Assembly (NCBI GenBank): GCA_035275625.1
Contig: DATEMK010000066.1
Coordinates: 1 to 43,782, forward strand
Length of the DNA stretch: 43,782 nt
Source of the DNA: Bacteroidia bacterium
GTDB taxonomy: Bacteria; Bacteroidota; Bacteroidia; AKYH767-A; OLB10
Direction of reading: 5' to 3'
Shown piece by piece: positions 1,880 to 42,777 of the stretch. Both the position numbers and the translations under genes were made by a program. Every line of letters begins with the position of its first letter. Position 1 is the stretch's first letter. The notes beneath the pieces are model-generated. The model made no database searches. It saw nothing but the letters and a program-made list of their open reading frames with translations, and was not told the origin of the DNA.

Positions 1880-3316
1880 TTAAGATTTGAAGTACTGTGT
1901 AATTTGAAATTGCCCGGTAGCGGATTGCCTGTATTTAAACCAATCATTTGCCGCGCCATCCAACGAAAGCGGGCTGCTAACACCTGATGGCAGTGAAATA
2001 TTCACCCCTGAAGTAATGTCCAAAGTCATTAAACTGTTTATCCTGGCTAATACTTCATGCGTGTAATTAAAGCTGGGTGTGTTGATTGTGTCTATTCCCA
2101 ATACTCCTGAACCTTGCAGGTCTAAAACTCCCGCTTTTTCTTTTGGATTGGTGCCATTTACATCCAAAACATTTCCTCCTGTTATAGCTACATTGGAAAC
2201 AATATTGCTGAACCCGTATTGCAGGACACCGCCATTAATATCGGCACTGTAAACCGCACTGACTCCTGTTTCGTGCATATCGGTTACGTTAGCGCCTGAA
2301 TTAATAGTTCTGCCTCCCGTTATAGTTGCACCCCTTATAGATGAGCTCCCTGTACCCAATATGCTGAATGAAGAATTTTCGCACCTGTATTTTTCTATCT
2401 GTGAGAATGCGGTAAGCGAAGCGGAAGAATTTAAAAATGTGTTTTGAATAAACGAAAAAAGTCCAGCGGTCATACTGTTCGTGATGGTGCAATTTTTAAT
2501 CACGTTATCTTTAAACGTGGAACCCAGCATGGCAGTGCCAGAGAATGCAGCGGTCATAGTTGTTTCCTCGACTGTGTTACCTGTAAAGTTTAAATATCCC
2601 CAGGGCGCGGTATTAATAAACGAAGTGGCACCGGCAACAGAATTTTTTACAACATTCCCGTAATTGTCGTAACGTTCGTAAATAACATCAGCCACAGGAT
2701 CATAATTCACGCGCTCAACTTCCAACGTGCCGCGCAAACCTGACGCTGTATAGTCAACAAATAAATGTCCGTAATGATCAAACCTATTTGACGTTATTGA
2801 ACGTAGAGCGATAGCAACATCAATAAGCAGGTACAAATAACCTCCACGTAAAGCACTGGTGGAAACAAGTGTATTGAACCCTGCGCGAGTAGTAAGAATA
2901 ACCTGGTTAAGGTAAAGTGTTTTTAATGCATTGGCAGAAATCTCATTCGGTCCACCAAGGTCGAGGTACTGATCAGTGTTTTGAATGTGTGAAAGTGTGC
3001 CTGTAGAAACAAGCTGCCATATCGCGGGATTGGTCCCGGGAGTTACACCGGTCTGGTAAGGAGTACCAACAAACAAATAAATATTACCAAGGTAACTGAC
3101 ATAAGAAGGGATCGGGTTTCCGTTGGAATCATTAAACGGATATGCCTGGCCCGGACTATAAGGCGCCACATTGCCGGTAGAATTCAATGATTGAATAGTA
3201 TCAATCAGAATTTCCCAATTGGTATCATGTTCAAGCCATGTCAGCTCTGAACCTTTTGTTGTGTAACCGGCTTTTGTTAAAATCCGGAAGATGAAATTTA
3301 TGTTTGGCAGTCCCAT
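1880..3316 (-). CDS. Tail fibre protein
   Basis: 478 aa. The N-terminus (TKGSELTWLEHDTNWEILIDTIQSL) is the typical phage fibre attachment motif. The rest is Gly/Asn/Thr-rich and beta-helix-like. Confidence 0.7.
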   Translation of the reverse strand: MGLPNINFIFRILTKAGYTTKGSELTWLEHDTNWEILIDTIQSLNSTGNVAPYSPGQAYPFNDSNGNPIPSYVSYLGNIYLFVGTPYQTGVTPGTNPAIWQLVSTGTLSHIQNTDQYLDLGGPNEISANALKTLYLNQVILTTRAGFNTLVSTSALRGGYLYLLIDVAIALRSITSNRFDHYGHLFVDYTASGLRGTLEVERVNYDPVADVIYERYDNYGNVVKNSVAGATSFINTAPWGYLNFTGNTVEETTMTAAFSGTAMLGSTFKDNVIKNCTITNSMTAGLFSFIQNTFLNSSASLTAFSQIEKYRCENSSFSILGTGSSSIRGATITGGRTINSGANVTDMHETGVSAVYSADINGGVLQYGFSNIVSNVAITGGNVLDVNGTNPKEKAGVLDLQGSGVLGIDTINTPSFNYTHEVLARINSLMTLDITSGVNISLPSGVSSPLSLDGAANDWFKYRQSATGQFQITQYFKS

Positions 3317-3865: not shown

Positions 3866-5010
3866 TCTACCGGAGGTGTTTTAGGATCTTCTTTTTTGGG
3901 ATTCAGTGATTCGGACATGAATTCACCTGTGCCCATCGGAATAATTGAATAGTTGCCTGAAGGATTGATAGCGCCCTCCCAGTTGGAAAAAATATCTTTG
4001 AATGTTTCTTCAAACATTATCCGCTCTTCCTTCGTGTAATTGTTATAGTAGGTAATGGCATCAACCATTTGCTGACTGAGCCCGATCTGCCCGGGAATAG
4101 TTTCACCGATCAGAACACCAGGTGCACCAAATTGTTTCCGTATATTTTCACCAACAGAGGTTTCATGGTACTCAAACATTCTGTCATTCTTCGGAACATC
4201 GAATGGTTTTATTTCCGGAATCTGATCTTTCTTTTTATACTCGACATGGAAAATCCTGCTTGCATTTTTTCCACCCTGAAACTTTTTAACATTGTTGCGG
4301 AATTCTGTTCGTTCCTCCTCCTTTTCAAATTCAGGAGTGGCAAACATGTGGCTGGCCATGAAGTTGGTTGTTACATTCCGGAACTTATACATTTTCGTTT
4401 CGGAGTCTGTGATCACGTCCTCGCGAACGGAATCAATCGGGGAAAGAGGGTACTCATTCCCATAGTAAAAAAGCTGTCCTTTGTACTGGCCGACCCCTTC
4501 TTCTTCGATACGGTAGGAAACATATTCCGGATCGGCATTATACAGGTCTATCCAGTCAATTTTTTTCCGAAGAAAATATAACCTCCTCCGACCATCCCAA
4601 TCATCATATAAAGCAGCTCTCCCTGCAACTTCGGGGACTTCATCATCGCCCAGGCGAATGTGCTCAAACGGCACGTGAAAAACTTCGGTGATTTTTCCAT
4701 TGAGGTTGAAATTCATGTGAATTCCATAACCTTTGAAGCGTGCATAATCCGCTGCGAGCTTCCGGAAAAGCATGTCAACCGTCATACCCCTGCGGTTGAT
4801 TATTGCTTTGTAAAAAGTGAGATCCTTGAACCCTTCGCCCTTTATAAATTTTGCAAAGGTGTTGACACACCGCGTTGCGGCTCCACTCGCAGAAATGAGC
4901 ATGTCAATATTCTGCGGGTAAGCATTATCCAGATCATAGTTTTGAATTCTGTAAACTCTGTTCTTACGGATAATGATACGGGGATCAAGATCGGTAGTGA
5001 ACGAAATCAC
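3862..5010 (-). CDS. Putative portal protein
   Basis: 382 aa. Portal-like pattern includes ...FQGGKNASRIFHVEY... (resembling the F-x-G-x-x-NAGK portal motif) and an acidic/Pro-rich C-terminal tail. Assigned by pattern only. Confidence 0.5.
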   Translation of the reverse strand: MISFTTDLDPRIIIRKNRVYRIQNYDLDNAYPQNIDMLISASGAATRCVNTFAKFIKGEGFKDLTFYKAIINRRGMTVDMLFRKLAADYARFKGYGIHMNFNLNGKITEVFHVPFEHIRLGDDEVPEVAGRAALYDDWDGRRRLYFLRKKIDWIDLYNADPEYVSYRIEEEGVGQYKGQLFYYGNEYPLSPIDSVREDVITDSETKMYKFRNVTTNFMASHMFATPEFEKEEERTEFRNNVKKFQGGKNASRIFHVEYKKKDQIPEIKPFDVPKNDRMFEYHETSVGENIRKQFGAPGVLIGETIPGQIGLSQQMVDAITYYNNYTKEERIMFEETFKDIFSNWEGAINPSGNYSIIPMGTGEFMSESLNPKKEDPKTPPVE

Positions 5011-5012
5011 GG

Positions 5013-5456
5013 TTATTTAGTTTTGCCCTGTTTGCCAGTTTTTGTAGTGACTGATTCCGGATTGACTTCACCGGTGTCGGTTAATTTTCCACCTGCAGGA
5101 GATTTCGTTTTCTTCGGTATTTTGACAAATACACTTAGTAAAGCCGGACGGTTTGTTAAAATTATCCTCGCTTCATCAGGAGTGATGTTCTCTGAAGTCC
5201 GGGGACCAAACTCCGACATCAGTGTTGAACCCTCACGGATTGTATAGTCGAAACTTTCAAAATCAATTGTTATAGCAACAGGCTCCACCAATTTTTTCAA
5301 ACGTGCTATAGCATCATCGAATCTTCCCGGGCAGTTGATACAGATTTCCTCTTTCAAAAATTCCTGGCATACCGCCTGAAATTCTTTGCTTTTTTCTTCG
5401 TTAACGAAGACCTCGGCAACAGTATAGCCGATAACTTTTAAGATTTTTTCTTTCAT
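5013..5456 (-). CDS. Hypothetical phage protein with a basic C-terminal tail
   Basis: 147-aa ORF, 2 nt upstream of the portal-like gene. Confidence 0.55.
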   Translation of the reverse strand: MKEKILKVIGYTVAEVFVNEEKSKEFQAVCQEFLKEEICINCPGRFDDAIARLKKLVEPVAITIDFESFDYTIREGSTLMSEFGPRTSENITPDEARIILTNRPALLSVFVKIPKKTKSPAGGKLTDTGEVNPESVTTKTGKQGKTK

Positions 5457-27628: not shown

Positions 27629-27868
27629 TCAGTTTTTATTAGCGTAATTGTGTAACAGATAAAGTTTGTTCAGGCATACACGGCACACCGCCTTACCCTC
27701 ATAATTGAATTCCTTCGGCAGCATAAACACATGCATGTTCATTGCAGCATGTATGGGAGCTGTCTTGCATTCGTCACAATATCCCCATCCGCTACGACCA
27801 AATTTTTCAGGAATCGAATCAATGAATTTCTTCATTGCTATATCTGCTGGTGATTGTGTTTCCATCAT
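27629..27868 (-). CDS. Small zinc-ribbon-like protein
   Basis: 79 aa with CDEC...CRVC pairs. Confidence 0.5.
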   Translation of the reverse strand: MMETQSPADIAMKKFIDSIPEKFGRSGWGYCDECKTAPIHAAMNMHVFMLPKEFNYEGKAVCRVCLNKLYLLHNYANKN

Positions 27869-28035
27869 AATTTCTTTAAATATTCAACTAATACAATTAA
27901 GTTGTAAGGATCAATTAGTTCATAGAAGTCAAGTCCGTTGTGCACCATTTTCACAATTTCGATTTGCTTTTTGCTATGTACTTTGTAATGCACGGTGAAA
28001 GGAATTCCACAGACACGGCAATCATGCTTTTTCAT
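27865..28035 (-). CDS. Small protein (56 aa) absent from the ORF track
   Basis: MKKHDCRVCGIPFTVHYKVHSKKQIEIVKMVHNGLDFYELIDPYNLIVLVEYLKKL. The start overlaps the E1-like gene's end by 14 nt, and the stop overlaps the next ATG (ATGA). Confidence 0.4.
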   Translation of the reverse strand: MKKHDCRVCGIPFTVHYKVHSKKQIEIVKMVHNGLDFYELIDPYNLIVLVEYLKKL

Positions 28036-28858
28036 TTTTTGCTTTAATCATTATAGGATTTGTACTTAGATTGTCGAGGTTTAAAAACAAACCATGATAC
28101 TCCAGTTTCAAATTCCTGAACATCTTCCAGATCAGTTGTGCTCCATATTGCGCCAGGATGGAATTAATAAACAAATCCTGCTTTCCCAAAGCTTCAGCAA
28201 GTGAACAACTGGGCATATCCGGCTTATCAAATTTTTTCATATCCGGAAACAAATCCAGTATAGTAGGTAATTCTTTAACTGTACCCTTAGATCCTTTAGG
28301 CTGGTTCACTTTACCGAAGGTTCCTAACACCACCTGGCCTGATGTCTGGCTGTTGCCAAGGTCCAGCCAATAAACCGGTATGTTAAAGGGTGATCGGTCG
28401 TTATTGGTTAAATATTTAATTTCTTCGATCCATTCACGTGACTGTACGTTGTCCACACATGATACCATCATATTAGCAAAGCACCTGTCTTTTAAAGCCT
28501 GTTGATCCCATTTCATAGGAAATGACTGCCAGTTGAATCCATAAAACCTGTTGATACGCTCAATAAGAATTTTTGCTTTGTACTGATCTAAGTCAGCTTT
28601 TGAAAACAATTGCCGTCCCAAGTTTGCCTCGCTTACTTTATCAGGATCCCACGCCTGTACAACTATACCCGGGTGGCCCAATGCAATGAGCGAAACATTG
28701 ATTCTGGCCAGCGCCTGCAGCATCTGGCTGCCGGATCCACCACACCCAATCACTTTGACTGTTATGGGATGTTCAGGGGATAGAAAATACTGTTCGGTAA
28801 AATGAACTTTCTTTTCTTCTTTTTTGGAAACTGATTTTTTACTTACAGATTTTCGCAT
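28022..28858 (-). CDS. ThiF/MoeB/E1-like adenylyltransferase (PRTRC ThiF-family component)
   Basis: Rossmann motif VIGCGGSGSQMLQALA, then DPDKVSEANLGRQLF and VSCVDNVQSR, all hallmarks of the E1-like fold. It sits in PRTRC synteny. Confidence 0.8.
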   Translation of the reverse strand: MRKSVSKKSVSKKEEKKVHFTEQYFLSPEHPITVKVIGCGGSGSQMLQALARINVSLIALGHPGIVVQAWDPDKVSEANLGRQLFSKADLDQYKAKILIERINRFYGFNWQSFPMKWDQQALKDRCFANMMVSCVDNVQSREWIEEIKYLTNNDRSPFNIPVYWLDLGNSQTSGQVVLGTFGKVNQPKGSKGTVKELPTILDLFPDMKKFDKPDMPSCSLAEALGKQDLFINSILAQYGAQLIWKMFRNLKLEYHGLFLNLDNLSTNPIMIKAKNEKA

Positions 28859-29556
28859 ATTGCTCTGAGATTGGTAGTGCTCTGTTTAAGTTTTTTTAAA
28901 TTGAATTTACCCCTGCGTTTTTTCCTCCACCACTTCTGCATGTCCGTTTTACTATAGGCGCCTGTTACATTGTCGGTAAATTCCGAATTCCAGAATGCCT
29001 TTTCCCAGGCTGCAATAAGTTCATTAATATCCCCGCTTGTTTTTGGCACCTTCACATTACCAAGACACACCTTATGATCGGAATACACATTGAAGAACGG
29101 AGCATGATGCAGCCTGGTTAAAATGGATGGCCTGCGATTCTTATTCAATGCAGTTACAACCAGTGTATTGTTTTTGACGATGAAGACAAGCGGAGGAGTC
29201 CATGCAGTGATGGACGGCTTATTTTTAATCAGCAGAGTCTGGCGCTTTGTCGTCTGCCACCAGGCGATTACATTTCGTCCCGGGCGCTGATCAATAACCA
29301 GCAGGTTGGTGGGAACTATATCCGAAATAGAATAATACGTTTGCTTATCGTTTTTTGCAACCACATCCATCAGCAGCTGCAACGATTGTTTAGTAACCGG
29401 TTTTCCTGATCCGATAAATGCCTTGGAACCATCCTGCATGATGTCCGACACCTCCACGTAATATTTGGTTTCGGTCCGGTCTTTTTCAGCAGGATTGGTT
29501 GAATAAACAATCAAAGCCTGCTTGGGTGAATAAAATGAAAGGTTCGGTTGTTTCAT
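28843..29556 (-). CDS. PRTRC protein-B-like, possible E2/UBC-like component
   Basis: 237 aa, directly upstream of and overlapping the E1-like gene. The motif LHHAPFFNVYSDHKVCLGN is reminiscent of the E2 HPN...CL active-site region. Confidence 0.55.
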   Translation of the reverse strand: MKQPNLSFYSPKQALIVYSTNPAEKDRTETKYYVEVSDIMQDGSKAFIGSGKPVTKQSLQLLMDVVAKNDKQTYYSISDIVPTNLLVIDQRPGRNVIAWWQTTKRQTLLIKNKPSITAWTPPLVFIVKNNTLVVTALNKNRRPSILTRLHHAPFFNVYSDHKVCLGNVKVPKTSGDINELIAAWEKAFWNSEFTDNVTGAYSKTDMQKWWRKKRRGKFNLKKLKQSTTNLRAICENL

Positions 29557-30836
29557 AGAATATCTAATAATGGTATTGGTTTGAACAGTGCCTTGGAAAG
29601 TTTGTTAGTGTCTTCAAAAACACTCCGGTATTTTTTCTCCATCATCCGGCCAGCTTTCATAAATTTAATCAGTACCTCCGGGAAGCAATTTTTTGTATCC
29701 TCAAAATCTGATGGCTTCTCAATAACACAATCAAGAAAGAAAGGAACACCTCCCGCATTGCTGGTCTGTGCCTCACACATACCGGTGAGTTCATAATGAA
29801 ATGCATCATCGGTTCTCCAAAGAAATTTTACTGCCTCGTCAGGAGTCATGGGTAATTCATCGTATTGCTCCTCCTGTCCTTCATATTCTGAGGGAAGAGA
29901 AATGAACTTATGCATGTTCTGTCCCGACACCATTAGTTGCTTTCCAAGTTCCAGCCAGCTATAAATGTCTTTCAGGATTTGTGTATTGGGCTTGTATTTT
30001 CCAAAATAGCTGTCATACTCCCGCAGCCAAACCCTTTTCGATGAACCCGCTCTGATGAGCCGGTTGTAAAATTTGGTGGCTTCTCCTTTATTTCCGAATT
30101 CCTGATGTGCTTTTTCCAGGGATTCAATTTCCTTTTTCGTTTCATCACGGGGATCATTGCCATGATTTGTTTTATAGTGAACAAGGTTTTCTTCGATATT
30201 TTGATAGATGTAATTTTCACTATCTTCTTGCCACAAACCAACACCCCCACTATTGTTTAAATACCTGATCAGGTAAAAGCATAAATCAAAAAGGGAACCC
30301 TTATTTACTTTTTCTAATTGTGAAATCCAATACACCGGCATCACTGGACAGTCCACATCAAAGTAAACTGGCTGTTTCAGCCTCCAGCAATAACGTCCAT
30401 CTTTCAGAACAATGCCCAGCTCCTCGTGGTGAATCAGCTTGGATGTTTTAAGAAGAAATATGTGGAACACTTCTGAAACGGATGATTTATCAGTCCAGCG
30501 TGTGTTATCCTTGAATCCTTTGATTCCTGATGTAAGCGGTAATAAATCTTCCAGCGCCTTCAGGAGTTTTGATTCATCCTCCAAGAGGCAGTGACCTTTT
30601 GGCTTAGTCATCAAATCCACATGCACCCCATTCACGTATCTCAAAGGAATTTTTATGGAAGGTGGCATATGATTTCGGAGGGAGGAGGCACCCGTTCCCG
30701 GCTGTGCATCGAGAGGTCTAACACGCTCCGATTGATAGCGCTTTCGGAATGTAGGATGCTTCCGATTACGTTGTGAAGCTCCTGTAGATCCTCTTGCGGA
30801 TGATTGGGCTTTGGTGGTTTTCTTTTCTTTTTGCAT
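29553..30836 (-). CDS. Uncharacterised 427-aa cassette protein with a very basic N-terminus
   Basis: Lies between the Ubl and E2-like genes. The start at Met30 (30836) avoids a 68-nt overlap with the Ubl gene. The track ORF extends to 30923. Confidence 0.55.
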   Translation of the reverse strand: MQKEKKTTKAQSSARGSTGASQRNRKHPTFRKRYQSERVRPLDAQPGTGASSLRNHMPPSIKIPLRYVNGVHVDLMTKPKGHCLLEDESKLLKALEDLLPLTSGIKGFKDNTRWTDKSSVSEVFHIFLLKTSKLIHHEELGIVLKDGRYCWRLKQPVYFDVDCPVMPVYWISQLEKVNKGSLFDLCFYLIRYLNNSGGVGLWQEDSENYIYQNIEENLVHYKTNHGNDPRDETKKEIESLEKAHQEFGNKGEATKFYNRLIRAGSSKRVWLREYDSYFGKYKPNTQILKDIYSWLELGKQLMVSGQNMHKFISLPSEYEGQEEQYDELPMTPDEAVKFLWRTDDAFHYELTGMCEAQTSNAGGVPFFLDCVIEKPSDFEDTKNCFPEVLIKFMKAGRMMEKKYRSVFEDTNKLSKALFKPIPLLDIL

Positions 30837-30855
30837 CTGATAAACTGTTCCGTAT

Positions 30856-31077
30856 TCATCCTTTTGTTCCGACAGATGTTTTAAACGAATATATCGCCTT
30901 GGAACCCTCCACCTTCGGGCCACTCACTGATGCATTGGTCAGCTCGGGATATTCAGAGGAATAAAATTTAATCACTTCCTGCGGTGTCATATCCGGGTTC
31001 GGATCTGCCAGGTCAATTTCTTTACCATTCTTCTGGATGGTAAATTTTCTTTTTAAAGTATCTACTTGTAGTGCCAT
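30856..31077 (-). CDS. PRTRC protein-C-like ubiquitin-like (beta-grasp) protein ending in Gly
   Basis: 73 aa: ...MTPQEVIKFYSSEYPELTNASVSGPKVEGSKAIYSFKTSVGTKG. The size, the EYPELTNA core and the C-terminal GTKG match my recollection of the PRTRC C family. Confidence 0.7.
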   Translation of the reverse strand: MALQVDTLKRKFTIQKNGKEIDLADPNPDMTPQEVIKFYSSEYPELTNASVSGPKVEGSKAIYSFKTSVGTKG

Positions 31078-31090
31078 GTTTTTATATAGT

Positions 31091-32095
31091 TTAATCAGTT
31101 AATTCTTGTAACGCCTTTATCCATTTTTCAGCTGAGGCAAGCTGTTTGATCACCTCCGCATTGTCCGGAAATTTCTCTTTTGCTTTTTTGAAAGTTTCCA
31201 GTGATGCCTCATATTGACGATCCGTTCGCTGCTTCAATCCAGTTTCCATTAAATCTTTCAACTCTTTTTCCCTGGCATCTGCCTGTTGTTTGTTCAATGC
31301 CTGCTTTGCTTTCTCCAAATCATGTGAAGCTTTTGTATTTCCATCAGGCGCTTTGGTAACTGCAATTTCATATGCACGAATCGCCTCCTCGAAATTGCCG
31401 GCATCCATAGCACGCTTACCCAGATCCATTGTGTCAGTAAACTCTTTCAGCTTTTCTTTTGCTGCCTCAACTTCTTTTGATTTGTCCTGCTTGGATTCAG
31501 TTTCCTCAGGCTCCGTTTCAACCTTCACCATAGTAAGGTGTTTGTTAACCAGCTTTGTCAATTCAAACATGGAAACCGTTTTCTTTCCTCCAAAAATCTT
31601 TTTGAGGTTCTCATCAGAATGTATAGTTCGTTTTTCCTTCTTGTCCTGTAATCCCTTTTCTTTAATGTAAGCCCACATCTTTTTTGTCACTTCCGTTCTT
31701 GCTAACGGTTCTTTGCCAACAATCGGTTGAAGCGCTTCCCCGATTTCCATCTTCATCATAAAGGCGGGTTCTCTTTCAGATGATTTGACTTTTTTCTTAG
31801 AGTGTGAGCTTTTCTTTTTGGAAGATGCTTTCGAACCCTTACCATCTGTTTCAGTGTCGGATTCCGGTGCATCCTGCACAGTAACATTGAACTTTTGTTC
31901 GGTTGGCTCGGTGTTCACTTTTAAATGATTAATGATTCCATTGTCCACCTCTTCCGGATTGCCGGTCATGGTGATCAGTTTGTTGTCTTTATTGATGAGC
32001 AATGTCAGCTTATCACCCACTCGTGTAGTGGTAATTTTAACGACCTGTTTGTCGTTGAGTAGCGCAAATAGCGCTCTGAAGAAGATTTGTTCCAT
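31091..32095 (-). CDS. PRTRC protein-E-like N-terminus, SWIB/MDM2 domain, and TPR-like C-terminus
   Basis: N-terminus ...KITTTRVGDKLTLLINKDNKLITMTGNPEEVD. Residues 109-188, PAFMMKMEIGEALQPIVGKEPLARTEVTKKMWAYIKEKGLQDKKEKRTIHSDENLKKIFGGKKTVSMFELTKLVNKHL, are a textbook SWIB domain. Confidence 0.75.
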   Translation of the reverse strand: MEQIFFRALFALLNDKQVVKITTTRVGDKLTLLINKDNKLITMTGNPEEVDNGIINHLKVNTEPTEQKFNVTVQDAPESDTETDGKGSKASSKKKSSHSKKKVKSSEREPAFMMKMEIGEALQPIVGKEPLARTEVTKKMWAYIKEKGLQDKKEKRTIHSDENLKKIFGGKKTVSMFELTKLVNKHLTMVKVETEPEETESKQDKSKEVEAAKEKLKEFTDTMDLGKRAMDAGNFEEAIRAYEIAVTKAPDGNTKASHDLEKAKQALNKQQADAREKELKDLMETGLKQRTDRQYEASLETFKKAKEKFPDNAEVIKQLASAEKWIKALQELTD

Positions 32096-34214: not shown

Positions 34215-34853
34215 CTATTCAGTTACCGTTTCATCAGGAGTGTTTTCGTATGCTGAGGCATATTCCAGATATGCCAACCCCAAGTCCTGACTCGTTATAA
34301 AAAAATCCATGGGCGGTAATTCAGGATGAGCTTTGCGGTGTATTAGTGTTGCAGCTCCAAACCAGTCATATTTTTTTCTGAGCTCGTAACCTTTAGTGCC
34401 AGCCATGTGAACTAAATGACCTGCCAGGCACATAGCGCTTTTACAAATATTTTCTTCGGGATTAAATTCTGTGATCTCTCCAAATGTTGATTGCTGGTAG
34501 CATCTTTTCTTCTCATTAACTTCTTTGAGGATTGTCGAATATGGTTTGTCCAAAACAGGAATGCTTTCCCATTCATCAAGCTTTTCTTTTATTCCATTGA
34601 TCACGTCCGGTGACAGGTTCTTGATCACGTCCGGTGACAGGTTATTGATCACGTACGGTGACAGGTTATTGATCACGTACGGTGACAGGTTATTGATCAC
34701 GTCCGGTGACAGGTTCTTGATCACGTACGGTGACAGGTTCTTGATCACGTACGGTGACAGGTTCTTGATCACGTCCGGTGACAGGTTCTTGATCACGTAC
34801 GGTGACGCTTGCATGGCCATAAAAGCCTTAATGTTTAATGGAAGTTTTTTCAT
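34215..34853 (-). CDS. Octapeptide-repeat protein (NLSP[YD]VI[KN] x ~9) with a Cys-containing C-terminal domain
   Basis: The start is placed at MKKLPLNIK (34853), 1 nt after the upstream stop. The track ORF extends to 34973. The repeats are encoded by the 24-bp tandem array. Confidence 0.6.
   Translation of the reverse strand: MKKLPLNIKAFMAMQASPYVIKNLSPDVIKNLSPYVIKNLSPYVIKNLSPDVINNLSPYVINNLSPYVINNLSPDVIKNLSPDVINGIKEKLDEWESIPVLDKPYSTILKEVNEKKRCYQQSTFGEITEFNPEENICKSAMCLAGHLVHMAGTKGYELRKKYDWFGAATLIHRKAHPELPPMDFFITSQDLGLAYLEYASAYENTPDETVTE
34599..34806. repeat. Tandem direct repeat, 24 bp x 8.7 copies: GATCACGT[C/A]CGGTGACAGGTT[C/A]TT
   Basis: Counted by hand: 8 full units plus a 16-nt partial unit. 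Only two positions vary, each between the same two bases. Every unit contains a GATC. Confidence 0.95.
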
Positions 34854-34854
34854 A

Positions 34855-35466
34855 TTATTTTGTTTTTGATAGTAGTTGTAAGTATTGTTGTAATCGAATT
34901 TGAAATTGTTTAAAAAGACTGTTGAGCTCGGGAGCACTGAAAATGAAAACCTGTACCTCCCTGGTTTCTTCAACTAACATGGAGATCATACCATAGTCAA
35001 TGTGAATTCCGTTTTCTAATAGTGCAGCACGGTAAGAAGCTAATTGCAAAGGGTAATCATTCAGCCAGTCTTTTTTCTTTGGCTTGCCGCTTCCCTTGAA
35101 ATCGTTGATAATTACACGACCGTCCTTTTCAAAAATGCAATCGTAACGCCCTTTGTATTTGTGGATGTCGCTGAAAACATCCTGTTCAATGCATCTGATT
35201 TTGTAACCGGAAAGAAAATTTTTCAGGAGATCGTTTTCACAATTGCCGGTCTCAAAATATAGTTGAACGTTCTGATCAATTTCCCTACCGCGCTTTAGGG
35301 ACTCGCGCATGATCCGGTCAGCTTCTTTCTCGCCAATTCGTTCACACCATTGCTGAAGTTGTAGTTTGCTCGACTCCGGCATTGTTGCCGAGAGAATTTT
35401 GGTGATAGAATGATATAGCTTCCGGTCTTCCAATAGTGGAAGTTTGGTTTGATATTCTTCGCTCAT
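34855..35466 (-). CDS. PD-(D/E)XK nuclease (RecB/lambda-exonuclease-like)
   Basis: GRYDCIFE...VIINDFKGSGK (D...D/E-x-K) followed by QLASY (the QxxxY motif of the RecB nuclease family). It is adjacent to a Sak4-like ATPase. Confidence 0.6.
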   Translation of the reverse strand: MSEEYQTKLPLLEDRKLYHSITKILSATMPESSKLQLQQWCERIGEKEADRIMRESLKRGREIDQNVQLYFETGNCENDLLKNFLSGYKIRCIEQDVFSDIHKYKGRYDCIFEKDGRVIINDFKGSGKPKKKDWLNDYPLQLASYRAALLENGIHIDYGMISMLVEETREVQVFIFSAPELNSLFKQFQIRLQQYLQLLSKTK

Positions 35467-36899: not shown

Positions 36900-36926
36900 A
36901 AACCCGGTATTCGCTGTACCGGGTTT
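36900..36926. terminator. Perfect 10-bp stem-loop between two early transcription units
   Basis: AAACCCGGTA-TTCGCTG-TACCGGGTTT, 11 nt after the stop of the 36938..38215 gene. The T-rich tract is on the plus strand only. Confidence 0.4.
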
Positions 36927-41047: not shown

Positions 41048-41398
41048 ATGAATCAGGATCATCAGGAGGAAATAACCAGGCGAATGGTTGAAGCTGCAAA
41101 GCATGTGATCAGCGTCAACAAAAAAATAACGGACATGAAAGCATTCGCGGAAACAATTGGTTCCGGACCGGTGCAGGCATCCCGGTGGATCAGTGGCAAG
41201 GGAAGCGTAACACTTAATGATGTGGTGAATGCAAGTACAATTTTCGGGATCTCTTTGGAGTGGTTATGCCTGGGAATAGGCGAGATGTATCTGAGCCGGT
41301 TGCAGCAAATGGAAAACAGAATTGCAGTGCTCGAAAAGTCCGTAAAAAAGTCAGTAAGGATTAATAAAAATTCAGCCGTTCGAATCAAAACAGCTTAA
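41048..41398 (+). CDS. XRE/CI-type HTH protein
   Basis: AFAETIGSGPVQASRWISGKGSVTLNDVVNASTIFGISLEWLCLGIGEM. The start directly abuts the upstream stop. Confidence 0.6.
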   Translation: MNQDHQEEITRRMVEAAKHVISVNKKITDMKAFAETIGSGPVQASRWISGKGSVTLNDVVNASTIFGISLEWLCLGIGEMYLSRLQQMENRIAVLEKSVKKSVRINKNSAVRIKTA

Positions 41399-41537: not shown

Positions 41538-41621
41538 GCCCGGGTGGCGAAATTGGCAGACGCGCAGGTCTCAGAAGCCTGTGGGGTAACACCTTTAGGA
41601 GTTCGAGTCTCCTCTCGGGCA
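41538..41621 (+). tRNA. tRNA-Leu (anticodon CAG)
   Basis: Folded by hand. Acceptor GCCCGGG/CTCGGGC (one G:U pair); anticodon stem CAGGT/GCCTG with loop CTCAGAA; long variable arm; T-arm AGGAG-TTCGAGT-CTCCT; discriminator A. No encoded CCA. Confidence 0.9.
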
Positions 41622-41632
41622 CTAAATAAAAT

Positions 41633-41697: not shown

Positions 41698-42777
41698 ATG
41701 CCCGGCAACACTTTTGGTCAACGCTTCCGCATTACCACTTTTGGCGAGTCGCATGGCGAAATGATCGGAGTTATTATTGACGGATGTCCTGCCGGATTGG
41801 AAATTGATTTTGATTTTGTCCAAAAAGAATTGGATCGCAGAAAACCGGGGCAATCATCTATTACTACTCAACGAAAAGAAAGTGATACGGCAAAATTTGT
41901 ATCCGGAATTTTTAATGGAAAAACAACAGGCGCTCCCATTGCAGCCATTATTCCGAATGAAGATGCCCGTGAAAAAGATTATGAACATCTGAAAAATACT
42001 TTTCGCCCGTCTCATGCAGACTACGTTTATGAGATGAAATACGGCATCCGGGATTATCGCGGAGGAGGGCGTTCTTCCGCACGCGAAACTGCCGCTAGAG
42101 TTGTTGCAGGAGCGATTGCAAAAGTTCTTTTGAAAAAATATGGAATAACAATTACTGCTTATGTTTCAAAAGCGGGAGAAATCGTTTTGCAAAAAAATTA
42201 TACAGAATTGAATTTGGAGGATGCAGAAAAAAATATAGTCCGCTGCCCGGATGAAACAACTGCTCAAAAAATGATTGAACTTATTGAGAAAACAAGAATT
42301 GAAGGTGATTCAATCGGGGGAATAATTTCATGCGTTATAAAAAATTCTCCTGCGGGATTGGGTGAACCTGTATTTGACAAGCTGCATGCTGATTTGGGAA
42401 AAGCAATGCTGAGCATTAATGCTGTTCAGGGGTTTGAATACGGGAGTGGTTTTGACGGTGCAGAAAAAAAGGGATCCCTGAATAATGATGAGTTTTTAAA
42501 TAAAGACGGAAAAATAATCACAAAAACAAATTTCTCCGGAGGCATCCAGGGAGGAATCAGTAATGGAATGGATATCTATTTCAACGTTGCTTTCAAACCG
42601 GTTGCAACAATAATAAAAGCACAGAAAAGTGTAAATAAACAGGGAGAAGAAATAACTCTTGAAGCAAAAGGCCGCCATGATCCCTGTGTGCTGCCGCGTG
42701 CTGTCCCGATTGTTGAAGCAATGGCTGCAATTGTTTTAGCAGATCATTTATTAAGGAATAGAAATTCAAAAGTCTGA
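41698..42777 (+). CDS. aroC: Chorismate synthase
   Basis: [20 protein letters not shown]..., RPSHADY..., [11 protein letters not shown]..., GRHDPCV: all canonical AroC motifs. Confidence 0.95.

Follow-up and report, generated by a model that had tools for sequence, protein, structure and literature searches.

PRTRC cassettes (ParB-related, ThiF-related cassettes) have been known as a family and annotated through hidden Markov models (HMMs) since 2006-2008, and since 2022 the study of two sister types, CBASS Cap2 and Bil, has proved these to be real conjugation systems. PRTRC, as type '6d', is one of the ubiquitin-like operons that were predicted for bacteria in 2006, and type 6d was described by Iyer, Burroughs and Aravind (PMC1779556); the PRTRC families of NCBIfam (TIGR03734-TIGR03742) probably correspond to it. 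The canonical order ParB-E-C-F-B-A-ThiF is found on plasmids of Cupriavidus, Xanthomonas and R. pickettii, and this proteobacterial form, with its JAB protein A, fits the 6d description. The ubiquitin-like systems with a demonstrated anti-phage role, Bil types I and II ('6C'), Bub ('6E') and CBASS Cap2/Cap3, resemble PRTRC in the E1 adenylation of the C-terminus of a ubiquitin-like protein (Ubl) or target, in an E2-type cysteine relay and in their bacterial or mobile origin, but differ in having other E2 families, a multidomain E1 or E1-E2 fusion, a JAB protein in every case, and a location in defence islands (PMC10557695). PRTRC has been noted on an Elizabethkingia integrative and conjugative element (ICE), with the remark that "very little known" describes its function (bioRxiv 10.1101/2024.12.10.627669), and in a Burkholderia gladioli prophage in a 2026 paper (PMC13366799). 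Here a divergent PRTRC cassette is described from a stretch of 43,782 nucleotides (hereafter the window) of a Bacteroidia bacterium (assembly GCA_035275625.1, contig DATEMK010000066.1). With a probability of about 0.6 we read it as a functional conjugation system lacking both JAB and ParB that forms part of a temperate phage's early/replication operon and would act on the replication or DNA-processing machinery of that element.

Five minus-strand open reading frames (ORFs) are packed tightly over positions 32095-28022 and encode, in the order of transcription, an E-position protein, the Ubl, a protein called X in the following, an E2-like protein and an E1 of the ThiF type (Table 1). The spacing along this series is +13, +19, -4 and -16 nt and never rises above 19 nt at and around the cassette; the genes for X and E2 overlap in an ATGA, and those for E2 and ThiF share 16 nt, so that no space is left for a gene between them. 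The matches of the Ubl, the E2-like protein and the E1 to their families are far above chance. The initial annotation of the window had recognized five co-directional, near-abutting or overlapping genes and had read them as a PRTRC-type Ubl/E2/E1 cassette in canonical order. All five ORFs are present, the motifs quoted for each protein were found at the expected codons, and the assignment is borne out by the family HMMs (TIGR03736, TIGR03738 and PF14460) and by the gene order of known PRTRC. The profile search proposed in that annotation placed ThiF and the Ubl (protein C) above their cut-offs and the E2-like protein (protein B) through PF14460, whereas B fell slightly under the equivalog cut-off of TIGR03737 and the E-position protein stayed below that of its own model.

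The cassette shares with PRTRC the family matches of C, B and ThiF, the order E-C-(middle)-B-...-ThiF and carriage by a mobile element. Unlike the canonical form it has neither protein A nor an adjacent ParB, its E is fused to SWIB and TPR regions, its Ubl ends at a glycine, and the F position is taken by the unrelated-looking X family. Protein A (DUF2016 plus Prok-JAB, TIGR03735) is not present in the cassette, and scans with Pfam, PHROGs or PADLOC found no JAB domain there or in 31 other ORFs of the window, in agreement with the initial annotation, which had seen no JAB-type deubiquitinase. No PRTRC ParB (TIGR03734) lies beside the cassette, where an SF2 helicase gene, separated by an 11-nt gap, occupies the place upstream of E. 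The window does hold ParB-like genes, among them a ParB_N-methyltransferase fusion about 4.6 kb beyond the downstream end of the cassette, but these were rejected as its "ParB-related" part, being remote from it, of a common phage type and without a match to TIGR03734. By gene content and order the cassette is assigned to a JAB-less, ParB-less PRTRC subtype with the order E-C-X-B-ThiF. At its downstream edge two Cys-rich minus-strand ORFs, 27865-28035 (56 aa, CxxC) and 27629-27868 (79 aa, CxxC...CxxC), overlap the end of the ThiF gene and each other. They were considered as RING or Zn-ribbon E3 candidates and rejected, since they are kept downstream of ThiF in no relative.

The Ubl ends in ...SFKTSVGTKG with the stop codon directly after Gly73 (codon 30859-30861), so the free C-terminal glycine that had been read for this 73-aa protein is real. 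GTKG forms the exact end of 67 of 67 distinct Ubl homologues from related loci, and G70-T-K-G73 is at least 95% conserved. The length of the Ubl varies with the presence of JAB. Where JAB is present, the Ubl continues past the conserved glycine by 61 aa in Ralstonia phage Dina, 62 aa on the Xanthomonas plasmid, 7 aa on the Cupriavidus plasmid and 3 aa on the R. pickettii plasmid; where JAB is absent, in P. putida pTTS12, a Pseudoalteromonas plasmid, the Bacteroidota loci (67 distinct sequences) and the window cassette, it stops at that glycine. Within a small comparison of four lineages with JAB against four without, this covariation fits the pattern expected if the Ubl is matured by JAB and activated at its terminal glycine. 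Because the extension tracks the presence of JAB, the terminal glycine would be the reactive residue.

In the E2-like protein, which contains LHHAPFFNVYSDHKVCLGN, the motif H151-A-P-F-F-N156 ... V163-C164-x-G166 is encoded at 29059-29106, with the candidate catalytic Cys164 at 29065-29067. The stretch of this 237-aa protein that had been noted as reminiscent of the E2 HPN...Cys motif proved to be an invariant HAPFFN...VCxG in relatives: over 79 sequences its conservation is at least 95%, with H151 and Cys164 invariant, and it is recognizable in proteobacterial B proteins as well. About 20 E2 homologues are at least 59% identical. When the E2 profile was aligned with six eukaryotic UBC E2s (hhalign; E=2.6e-4, probability 42%), HPN fell on H151..N156 and the catalytic cysteine on C164.

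The E1 carries GCGGSGS at residues 38-44 (28727-28747) together with DPDKVSEANLGRQ, and had been recognized as a ThiF/E1-like adenylase from its GCGGSGS and Asp/NLGRQ motifs, an identification that its PRTRC_ThiF score supports over nearly the whole model (Table 1). Its further motifs are D71-x-D73...N79-x-G-R-Q83 and C134-x-D136, and a cysteine, Cys218, lies within PSCSLAEAL (codon 28205-28207). Across 77 E1 sequences G38xGGxGS44, D71xD73, N79xGRQ83, K94, C134xD136 and C218-S219 are at least 95% conserved; the proteobacterial ThiF proteins retain the same E1 motifs, and Cys218 also occurs in the ThiF of phage Dina. Outside its own family the E1 gave weak matches to ThiF and MoeB models of NCBIfam, to the CBASS E1-E2 models of PADLOC over the Rossmann core only (2e-7 or weaker), and to NCBIfam 6A-MBL cap2_3 at 19.7 bits against a cut-off of 320.

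In a scan with a degenerate pattern, in which each species was represented by one genome, 242 E2 relatives were obtained, and the best 80 of these (L008-L087) are nearly all from Bacteroidota, 30-35% identical in E2 and mostly ICE-like. All 80 loci were inspected, and in each the Ubl is followed by a middle protein of some 385 aa and then by E2 and ThiF, with no gene between E2 and ThiF. The JAB-less five-gene form is found in P. putida pTTS12 and on a Pseudoalteromonas plasmid as well; because the whole Bacteroidota set and these plasmids are without JAB, its absence is a trait of the subtype rather than of this phage. The ICE, pTTS12-type and Pseudoalteromonas systems share with the window the order E-C-X-B-ThiF, a Ubl ending in glycine and the invariant E1 and E2 residues, and the middle protein of the ICE versions is homologous to X. 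Beyond E2, the ICE versions are about 45% identical to the phage clade in ThiF and about 40% in Ubl; SWIB and TPR regions are added to E in the phage clade. The surroundings differ too. Among 84 loci carrying the ThiF gene of the cassette, the single-strand DNA-binding protein SSB is encoded in 63, DUF932 in 53 and a primase (Toprim) in 14, and their neighbours also include a tyrosine integrase, a type IV secretion system (T4SS) coupling protein and a relaxase (neighbour clusters, representatives scanned). These neighbours show an ICE context for the Bacteroidota loci, in place of the recombination and replication genes of the phage. That PRTRC is mostly borne by plasmids and conjugative elements, as the initial annotation held, agrees with its occurrence in 311 of 72,556 plasmid records as against 6 of 50,697 for phages, where five of the sequences are distinct.

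Protein X begins at the ATG at 30836. A 456-aa version from a GTG would overlap the Ubl gene, and relatives begin at the equivalent of the ATG, which supports the length of 427 aa. The very basic N-terminus that had been noted is real, with a pI of 11.8 over the first 60 residues. X matches nothing in Pfam, NCBIfam, PHROGs or PADLOC, including the PRTRC_F models TIGR03742 and PF14456 (alpha-hel2), and X HMMs do not match the F proteins of Dina or Cupriavidus, so that X as a recognizable PRTRC_F/alpha-hel2 protein is not detectable. Nine close homologues were found among 5.8 billion protein clusters, and the contigs of three of them, which were read, are phage contigs with the gene order unchanged. 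When 1.84 billion representatives were searched exhaustively with a profile, 174 X clusters were obtained at E<=1e-3, mostly of 340-450 aa; a homologue search with a 60-sequence X alignment added one protein only. The HMM of the ICE-type middle protein matches all nine phage-clade X proteins, and an hhalign comparison of the two families reached a probability of 80% (E=1.4e-5, 307 columns), by which X is taken to be a distant homologue and positional counterpart of the middle protein of about 385 aa. The 458-aa middle protein of pTTS12 matches the same HMM marginally (E=9e-4 in a 15-sequence database).

An AlphaFold model of X built from nine sequences reached a pLDDT of 60, and an AF2 model from 60 diverse members 88.8 with a pTM of 0.82; it predicts a disordered basic N-terminus (about residues 1-65) followed by a mostly helical core with few strands. 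Foldseek found no match for the high-confidence model in the PDB (best E=0.87) and one in BFVD (4.6e-11), another uncharacterized Caudovirales protein, and fold searches with the low- and high-confidence models found no enzyme. At a threshold of 70% conservation over the 60 members, the conserved residues are mostly hydrophobic, Gly, Pro and Trp, with one Ser and D344, and no His/Cys/Glu constellation is present among them. The suggestion of the initial annotation that this protein supplies the missing JAB activity did not hold up: its counterpart is present in the 80 JAB-less Bacteroidota loci, and X was rejected as a substitute for JAB or a peptidase since it shows no family match, active-site-like pattern or enzyme fold. 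From the pattern of conserved residues and the fold searches, X is read as a putative non-catalytic adaptor or scaffold. A 274-aa protein (P0009) from a 13-kb metagenome contig is a natural chimera in which roughly the first 170 residues of X run into the C-terminal portion of ThiF at a PVYW motif common to both, with E2 deleted; it probably arose by recombination or deletion, or else through faulty assembly.

The E-position protein begins with an E-like domain (residues 1-65, encoded at 31901-32095), which a linker rich in Lys and Ser connects to a SWIB/MDM2 domain at residues 116-187 (31535-31750); towards the C-terminus there follows a TPR region of about residues 224-322 (31130-31426), in which TPR_14 scores above its cut-off. 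It reaches 14.9 bits against the PRTRC_E model TIGR03741 (cut-off 37.95) and does not match PF19556; a short motif at residues 40-60, L-x-x-G-x-P-E-E-x-D, aligns at E of about 0.03 with an HMM of 80-residue ICE E N-termini. The gene in the E position matches PF19556 PRTRC_E in two phage relatives (L004 and L096), is a SWIB-bearing homologue of 73% identity in a third (L003), and in a fourth (L001) shares the N- and C-terminal regions without SWIB. The description of this upstream gene as protein-E-like is thus borne out only weakly: position and order agree and the short motif matches, the family score is under the cut-off, and the SWIB and TPR regions had gone unnoticed.

The window is a temperate siphovirus-like prophage, as is seen from its phage genes and from the tRNA-Leu and host chorismate synthase genes at one end. 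Scans with PHROG and Pfam identified genes for the large terminase, portal, major tail and tape-measure proteins as well as a Holliday-junction resolvase, ParB-like proteins and an S24 repressor, and this confirms the earlier view that the cassette is carried by a phage. The tRNA-Leu region probably marks the site of attachment and the edge of the prophage; none of the genes in the window was identified as an integrase. A DNA-level search of 50,697 phage records found no near relative, the sole match being a 176-nt stretch of the helicase gene. A series of 22 minus-strand genes, no two neighbours more than 93 nt apart, extends from about 38.6 kb to 24.4 kb, and the cassette is placed midway in this co-directional array. 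Downstream of it lie small ORFs and then Lin1244_N/DnaD-like and DnaC-like replication genes, and on its other side AAA_24 and PD-(D/E)XK recombination genes, so that it stands between recombination and replication genes, as had been proposed. No minus-strand terminator-like site flanks the cassette, in a sigma-70 promoter/terminator scan that was uninformative as a whole, its counts being near the shuffled expectation and the promoters of Bacteroidota lying outside its coverage.

Table 1. Positions of the cassette genes and of further features in the window (E-values for Pfam, bit scores with cut-offs for NCBIfam unless marked).
Feature	Position	Strand	Family matches and remarks
E-position protein, 334 aa	31091-32095	-	SWIB PF02201 1.4e-26; TIGR03741 E=0.019
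Ubl (PRTRC_C/Prok_Ub), 73 aa	30856-31077	-	PF14454 3.4e-25; TIGR03738 75.9 bits (cut-off 45.95)
Protein X, 427 aa	29553-30836	-	PRTRC_F position; no library match
E2-like protein (PRTRC_B/Prok-E2_D), 237 aa	28843-29556	-	PF14460 1.4e-29, 103.4 bits (cut-off 25); TIGR03737 120.8 bits (cut-off 131.45)
E1-like PRTRC ThiF, 278 aa	28022-28858	-	TIGR03736 249.2 bits (cut-off 144.75; model positions 9-244 of 245); PF00899 9.5e-14
ParB_N-methyltransferase fusion, 494 aa	21909-23393	-	just upstream of terminase genes
Separate ParB-like protein, 218 aa	23365-24021	-	just upstream of terminase genes; no NCBIfam match
tRNA-Leu(CAG)	41538-41622	+	directly before chorismate synthase, just past the phage genes on their S24 repressor side
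Host chorismate synthase	41698-42777	+	

Three further features of the prophage were noted. A GC-rich palindrome with an 11-bp stem, AAACCCGGTA...TACCGGGTTT at 36900-36926, lies in the largest gap of the operon (93 nt) and separates a phrog_8203 gene from the AAA_24 gene. Between the PD-(D/E)XK nuclease and the helicase of the early operon, a 252-aa ORF (34215-34973, minus strand) with only marginal PHROG and Pfam matches contains a 24-nt tandem repeat (34597-34806, 8.8 copies, 96% matches) that encodes NLSP(Y/D)VI(K/N). Between the repressor-side genes and the tRNA-Leu, a 116-aa ORF (41048-41398, plus strand) weakly matches PADLOC PDC-M64B (E=1e-4), a candidate defence family, and may be a moron expressed in lysogeny.

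The order E-C-X-B-ThiF recurs in five phage relatives (L001, L003, L004, L095 and L096), preceded by a helicase or DnaN gene. The contigs of these five relatives, three with X and two with E2 homologues, carry phage-type genes, with a portal or terminase in two, and also RecT, S24 repressor and methyltransferase genes. When IMG/VR was scanned with the E2 protein alone, nothing matched; two IMG/VR contigs (L006 and L007) have the same five genes, with DnaN, DnaB, DnaD-like or SNF2 helicase genes at their side. As raw occurrences, dnaN adjoins the cassette in L006 (4973-6109), L007 (9407-10522), L095 (6485-7564) and the Pseudoalteromonas plasmid, and it lies about 3.8 kb from the cassette in pTTS12; on the plasmid loci the gene is at 12555-13661 in L089 and at 1-262 in L092. 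Every cassette context examined is rich in replication genes. In L003 (a contig of GCA_040384425.1) an Apyc1-like anti-Pycsar metallo-beta-lactamase gene and an RVT_1 reverse transcriptase gene (2454-3194 and 4385-5296) share the early operon with the PRTRC cassette, in which a DUF6166 gene is inserted between E and Ubl.

In the PRTRC cassettes of cultured phages, ThiF is 37% and E2 25-30% identical to the proteins of the window. Phage Dina (NC_055026), Ralstonia phage YO105_4 and Burkholderia phage BgVeeders33/prophage AB2 resemble it in being phage-borne, with the cassette at the early end of a temperate genome. Dina has the order E-C-F-B-A-ThiF with no ParB annotated beside the cassette; unlike the window it carries the full set with F and JAB, its protein A being DUF2016 plus Prok-JAB and its F weakly matching alpha-hel2, and its Ubl is extended to 129 aa.

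The sequences show the family membership, the order of the genes, conserved residues of a catalytic type, the genomic context and the covariation of JAB with the C-terminus of the Ubl; from these we infer the thioester chemistry, the targeting of proteins and what X and E do, as follows. The 73-aa Ubl would be made already mature, with a free Gly73 that the ThiF-type E1 adenylates; the E1 would probably hold the Ubl on Cys218 and pass it on to Cys164 of the E2, from which it would be joined to one or more target proteins. X and the E-position protein would act as non-catalytic factors of specificity or localization, and either may itself be a substrate. Without JAB, the cassette itself would not reverse the tagging. 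The likely arena is the replication and DNA-processing machinery of the element during lytic growth, because the cassette is co-transcribed with helicase and DnaD-/DnaC-like genes and its relatives stand beside SSB, primase, beta-clamp, DnaB and SF2/SNF2 helicase genes.

A more specific form of this reading, which we regard as quite unlikely, makes PRTRC a ubiquitin-type tagging system of the replisome, the phage or bacterial counterpart of PCNA ubiquitylation and SUMOylation. The Ubl would then be conjugated to the sliding clamp or to another replication or ssDNA-handling protein of host or element, X would be a new-fold E3-like adaptor on the E2, the SWIB-containing, Lys-rich E would tether the machinery to DNA, and host replication factors would be redirected to the incoming or induced element. 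The idea is suggested by dnaN, which lies at or near the cassette in three phage-type and two plasmid lineages, and by contexts that are rich in replication genes.

Several points weigh against a conjugation system that acts on replication. The choice of replication targets is guilt by association, and early phage operons combine many functions; the SSB/DUF932 neighbourhood of the ICEs would equally fit a role in establishment or anti-defence. The parts themselves are recognized at family level: the beta-grasp fold of the Ubl is predicted from the Pfam Prok_Ub family, and its profile gave no significant match to ubiquitin, ThiS, MoaD, SUMO or NEDD8; the candidate E2 was compared with UBC enzymes at a probability of 42%; Cys218 would lie in a crossover loop of the E1; and sequence searches of the PDB with Ubl, E2 and E1 found no relatives. 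What X and the E-position protein do for the enzymes is deduced. The initial annotation described PRTRC as having no known function, and the searchable literature indeed yielded no biochemical, functional or structural study of any PRTRC system.

Establishment and anti-defence are the subject of a rival reading that we consider possible but unlikely, a counter-defence or establishment module that, soon after the DNA of the element has entered the cell or been induced, would tag immune or stress proteins of the host and so inactivate or mask them, or that would tag the element's own proteins for protection. SSB and DUF932 precede the cassette in the ICEs of Bacteroidota, where it is also near primase, relaxase and coupling protein genes, a set that in our own comparison resembles the leading regions of plasmids, which are enriched in anti-defence genes (PMC11541004), and the phage cassette lies in an early operon that in the relative L003 also holds the Apyc1-like gene. 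ThiF is, however, absent from the text of the leading-region paper, no cassette component matches an anti-defence family in Pfam, NCBIfam, PHROGs or PADLOC, and the tight and recurrent linkage is with replication proteins (beta-clamp, DnaB and helicases) rather than with known anti-defence genes. Prophages often carry defence morons, and the cassette might instead be expressed from the lysogen for anti-phage defence or superinfection exclusion in the manner of Bil, Bub or CBASS Cap2. The characterized E1/E2/Ubl operons of bacteria, Bil and CBASS, do act in defence (PMC10557695), and the ThiF core has its weak match (2e-7) to CBASS E1-E2 models. This is very unlikely for a cassette that lies in the middle of a 22-gene lytic array, with overlapping genes and no visible promoter gap of its own, and not beside the repressor or attachment site; its E2 belongs to family D and not to the Bil (6C) or Bub (6E) type, and no PADLOC model matches the Ubl, X or E2 of the cassette.

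A function other than protein tagging, of the ThiS-ThiF or MoaD-MoeB kind, in which a thiocarboxylate or acyl-adenylate serves to modify a small molecule or nucleic acid and the E2-like protein is a carrier, appears highly unlikely. At 278 aa the E1 has the size of ThiF/MoeB, without a large Cys domain or UFD, and weakly matches both. No sulfurtransferase, rhodanese, thiazole synthase or molybdopterin synthase is found in the cassette or its relatives, the E2-like protein has its invariant HPN-like motif and cysteine in UBC register, and the JAB isopeptidase and C-terminally extended Ubls of the sister systems are a hallmark of protein conjugation.

Phage carriage of the cassette, which the initial annotation stressed, is real but was overstated as a novelty: phage-borne PRTRC is rare but already annotated, the full set in Dina by RefSeq and the B. 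gladioli prophage case in the literature (PMC13366799). What is new is the definition of the JAB-less, X-type subtype, a divergent phage clade with an E fused to SWIB and TPR regions, the way JAB and the tail of the Ubl vary together, and a fold of X that has no match in the PDB. The phage version is a minimal form of PRTRC with five genes, none of which would reverse the tagging, and because it is carried by a temperate phage of about 40 kb in a defined transcriptional and functional (replication) context, experiments on it are straightforward. Three general and testable points follow for the family: the Ubls of the JAB-less subtype are made mature, as opposed to the extended Ubls that accompany JAB; X founds a family of at least 174 clusters with a confidently predicted fold without a match in the PDB; and across phages, ICEs and plasmids the cassette keeps a persistent link to replication and ssDNA genes, including that of the beta-clamp.

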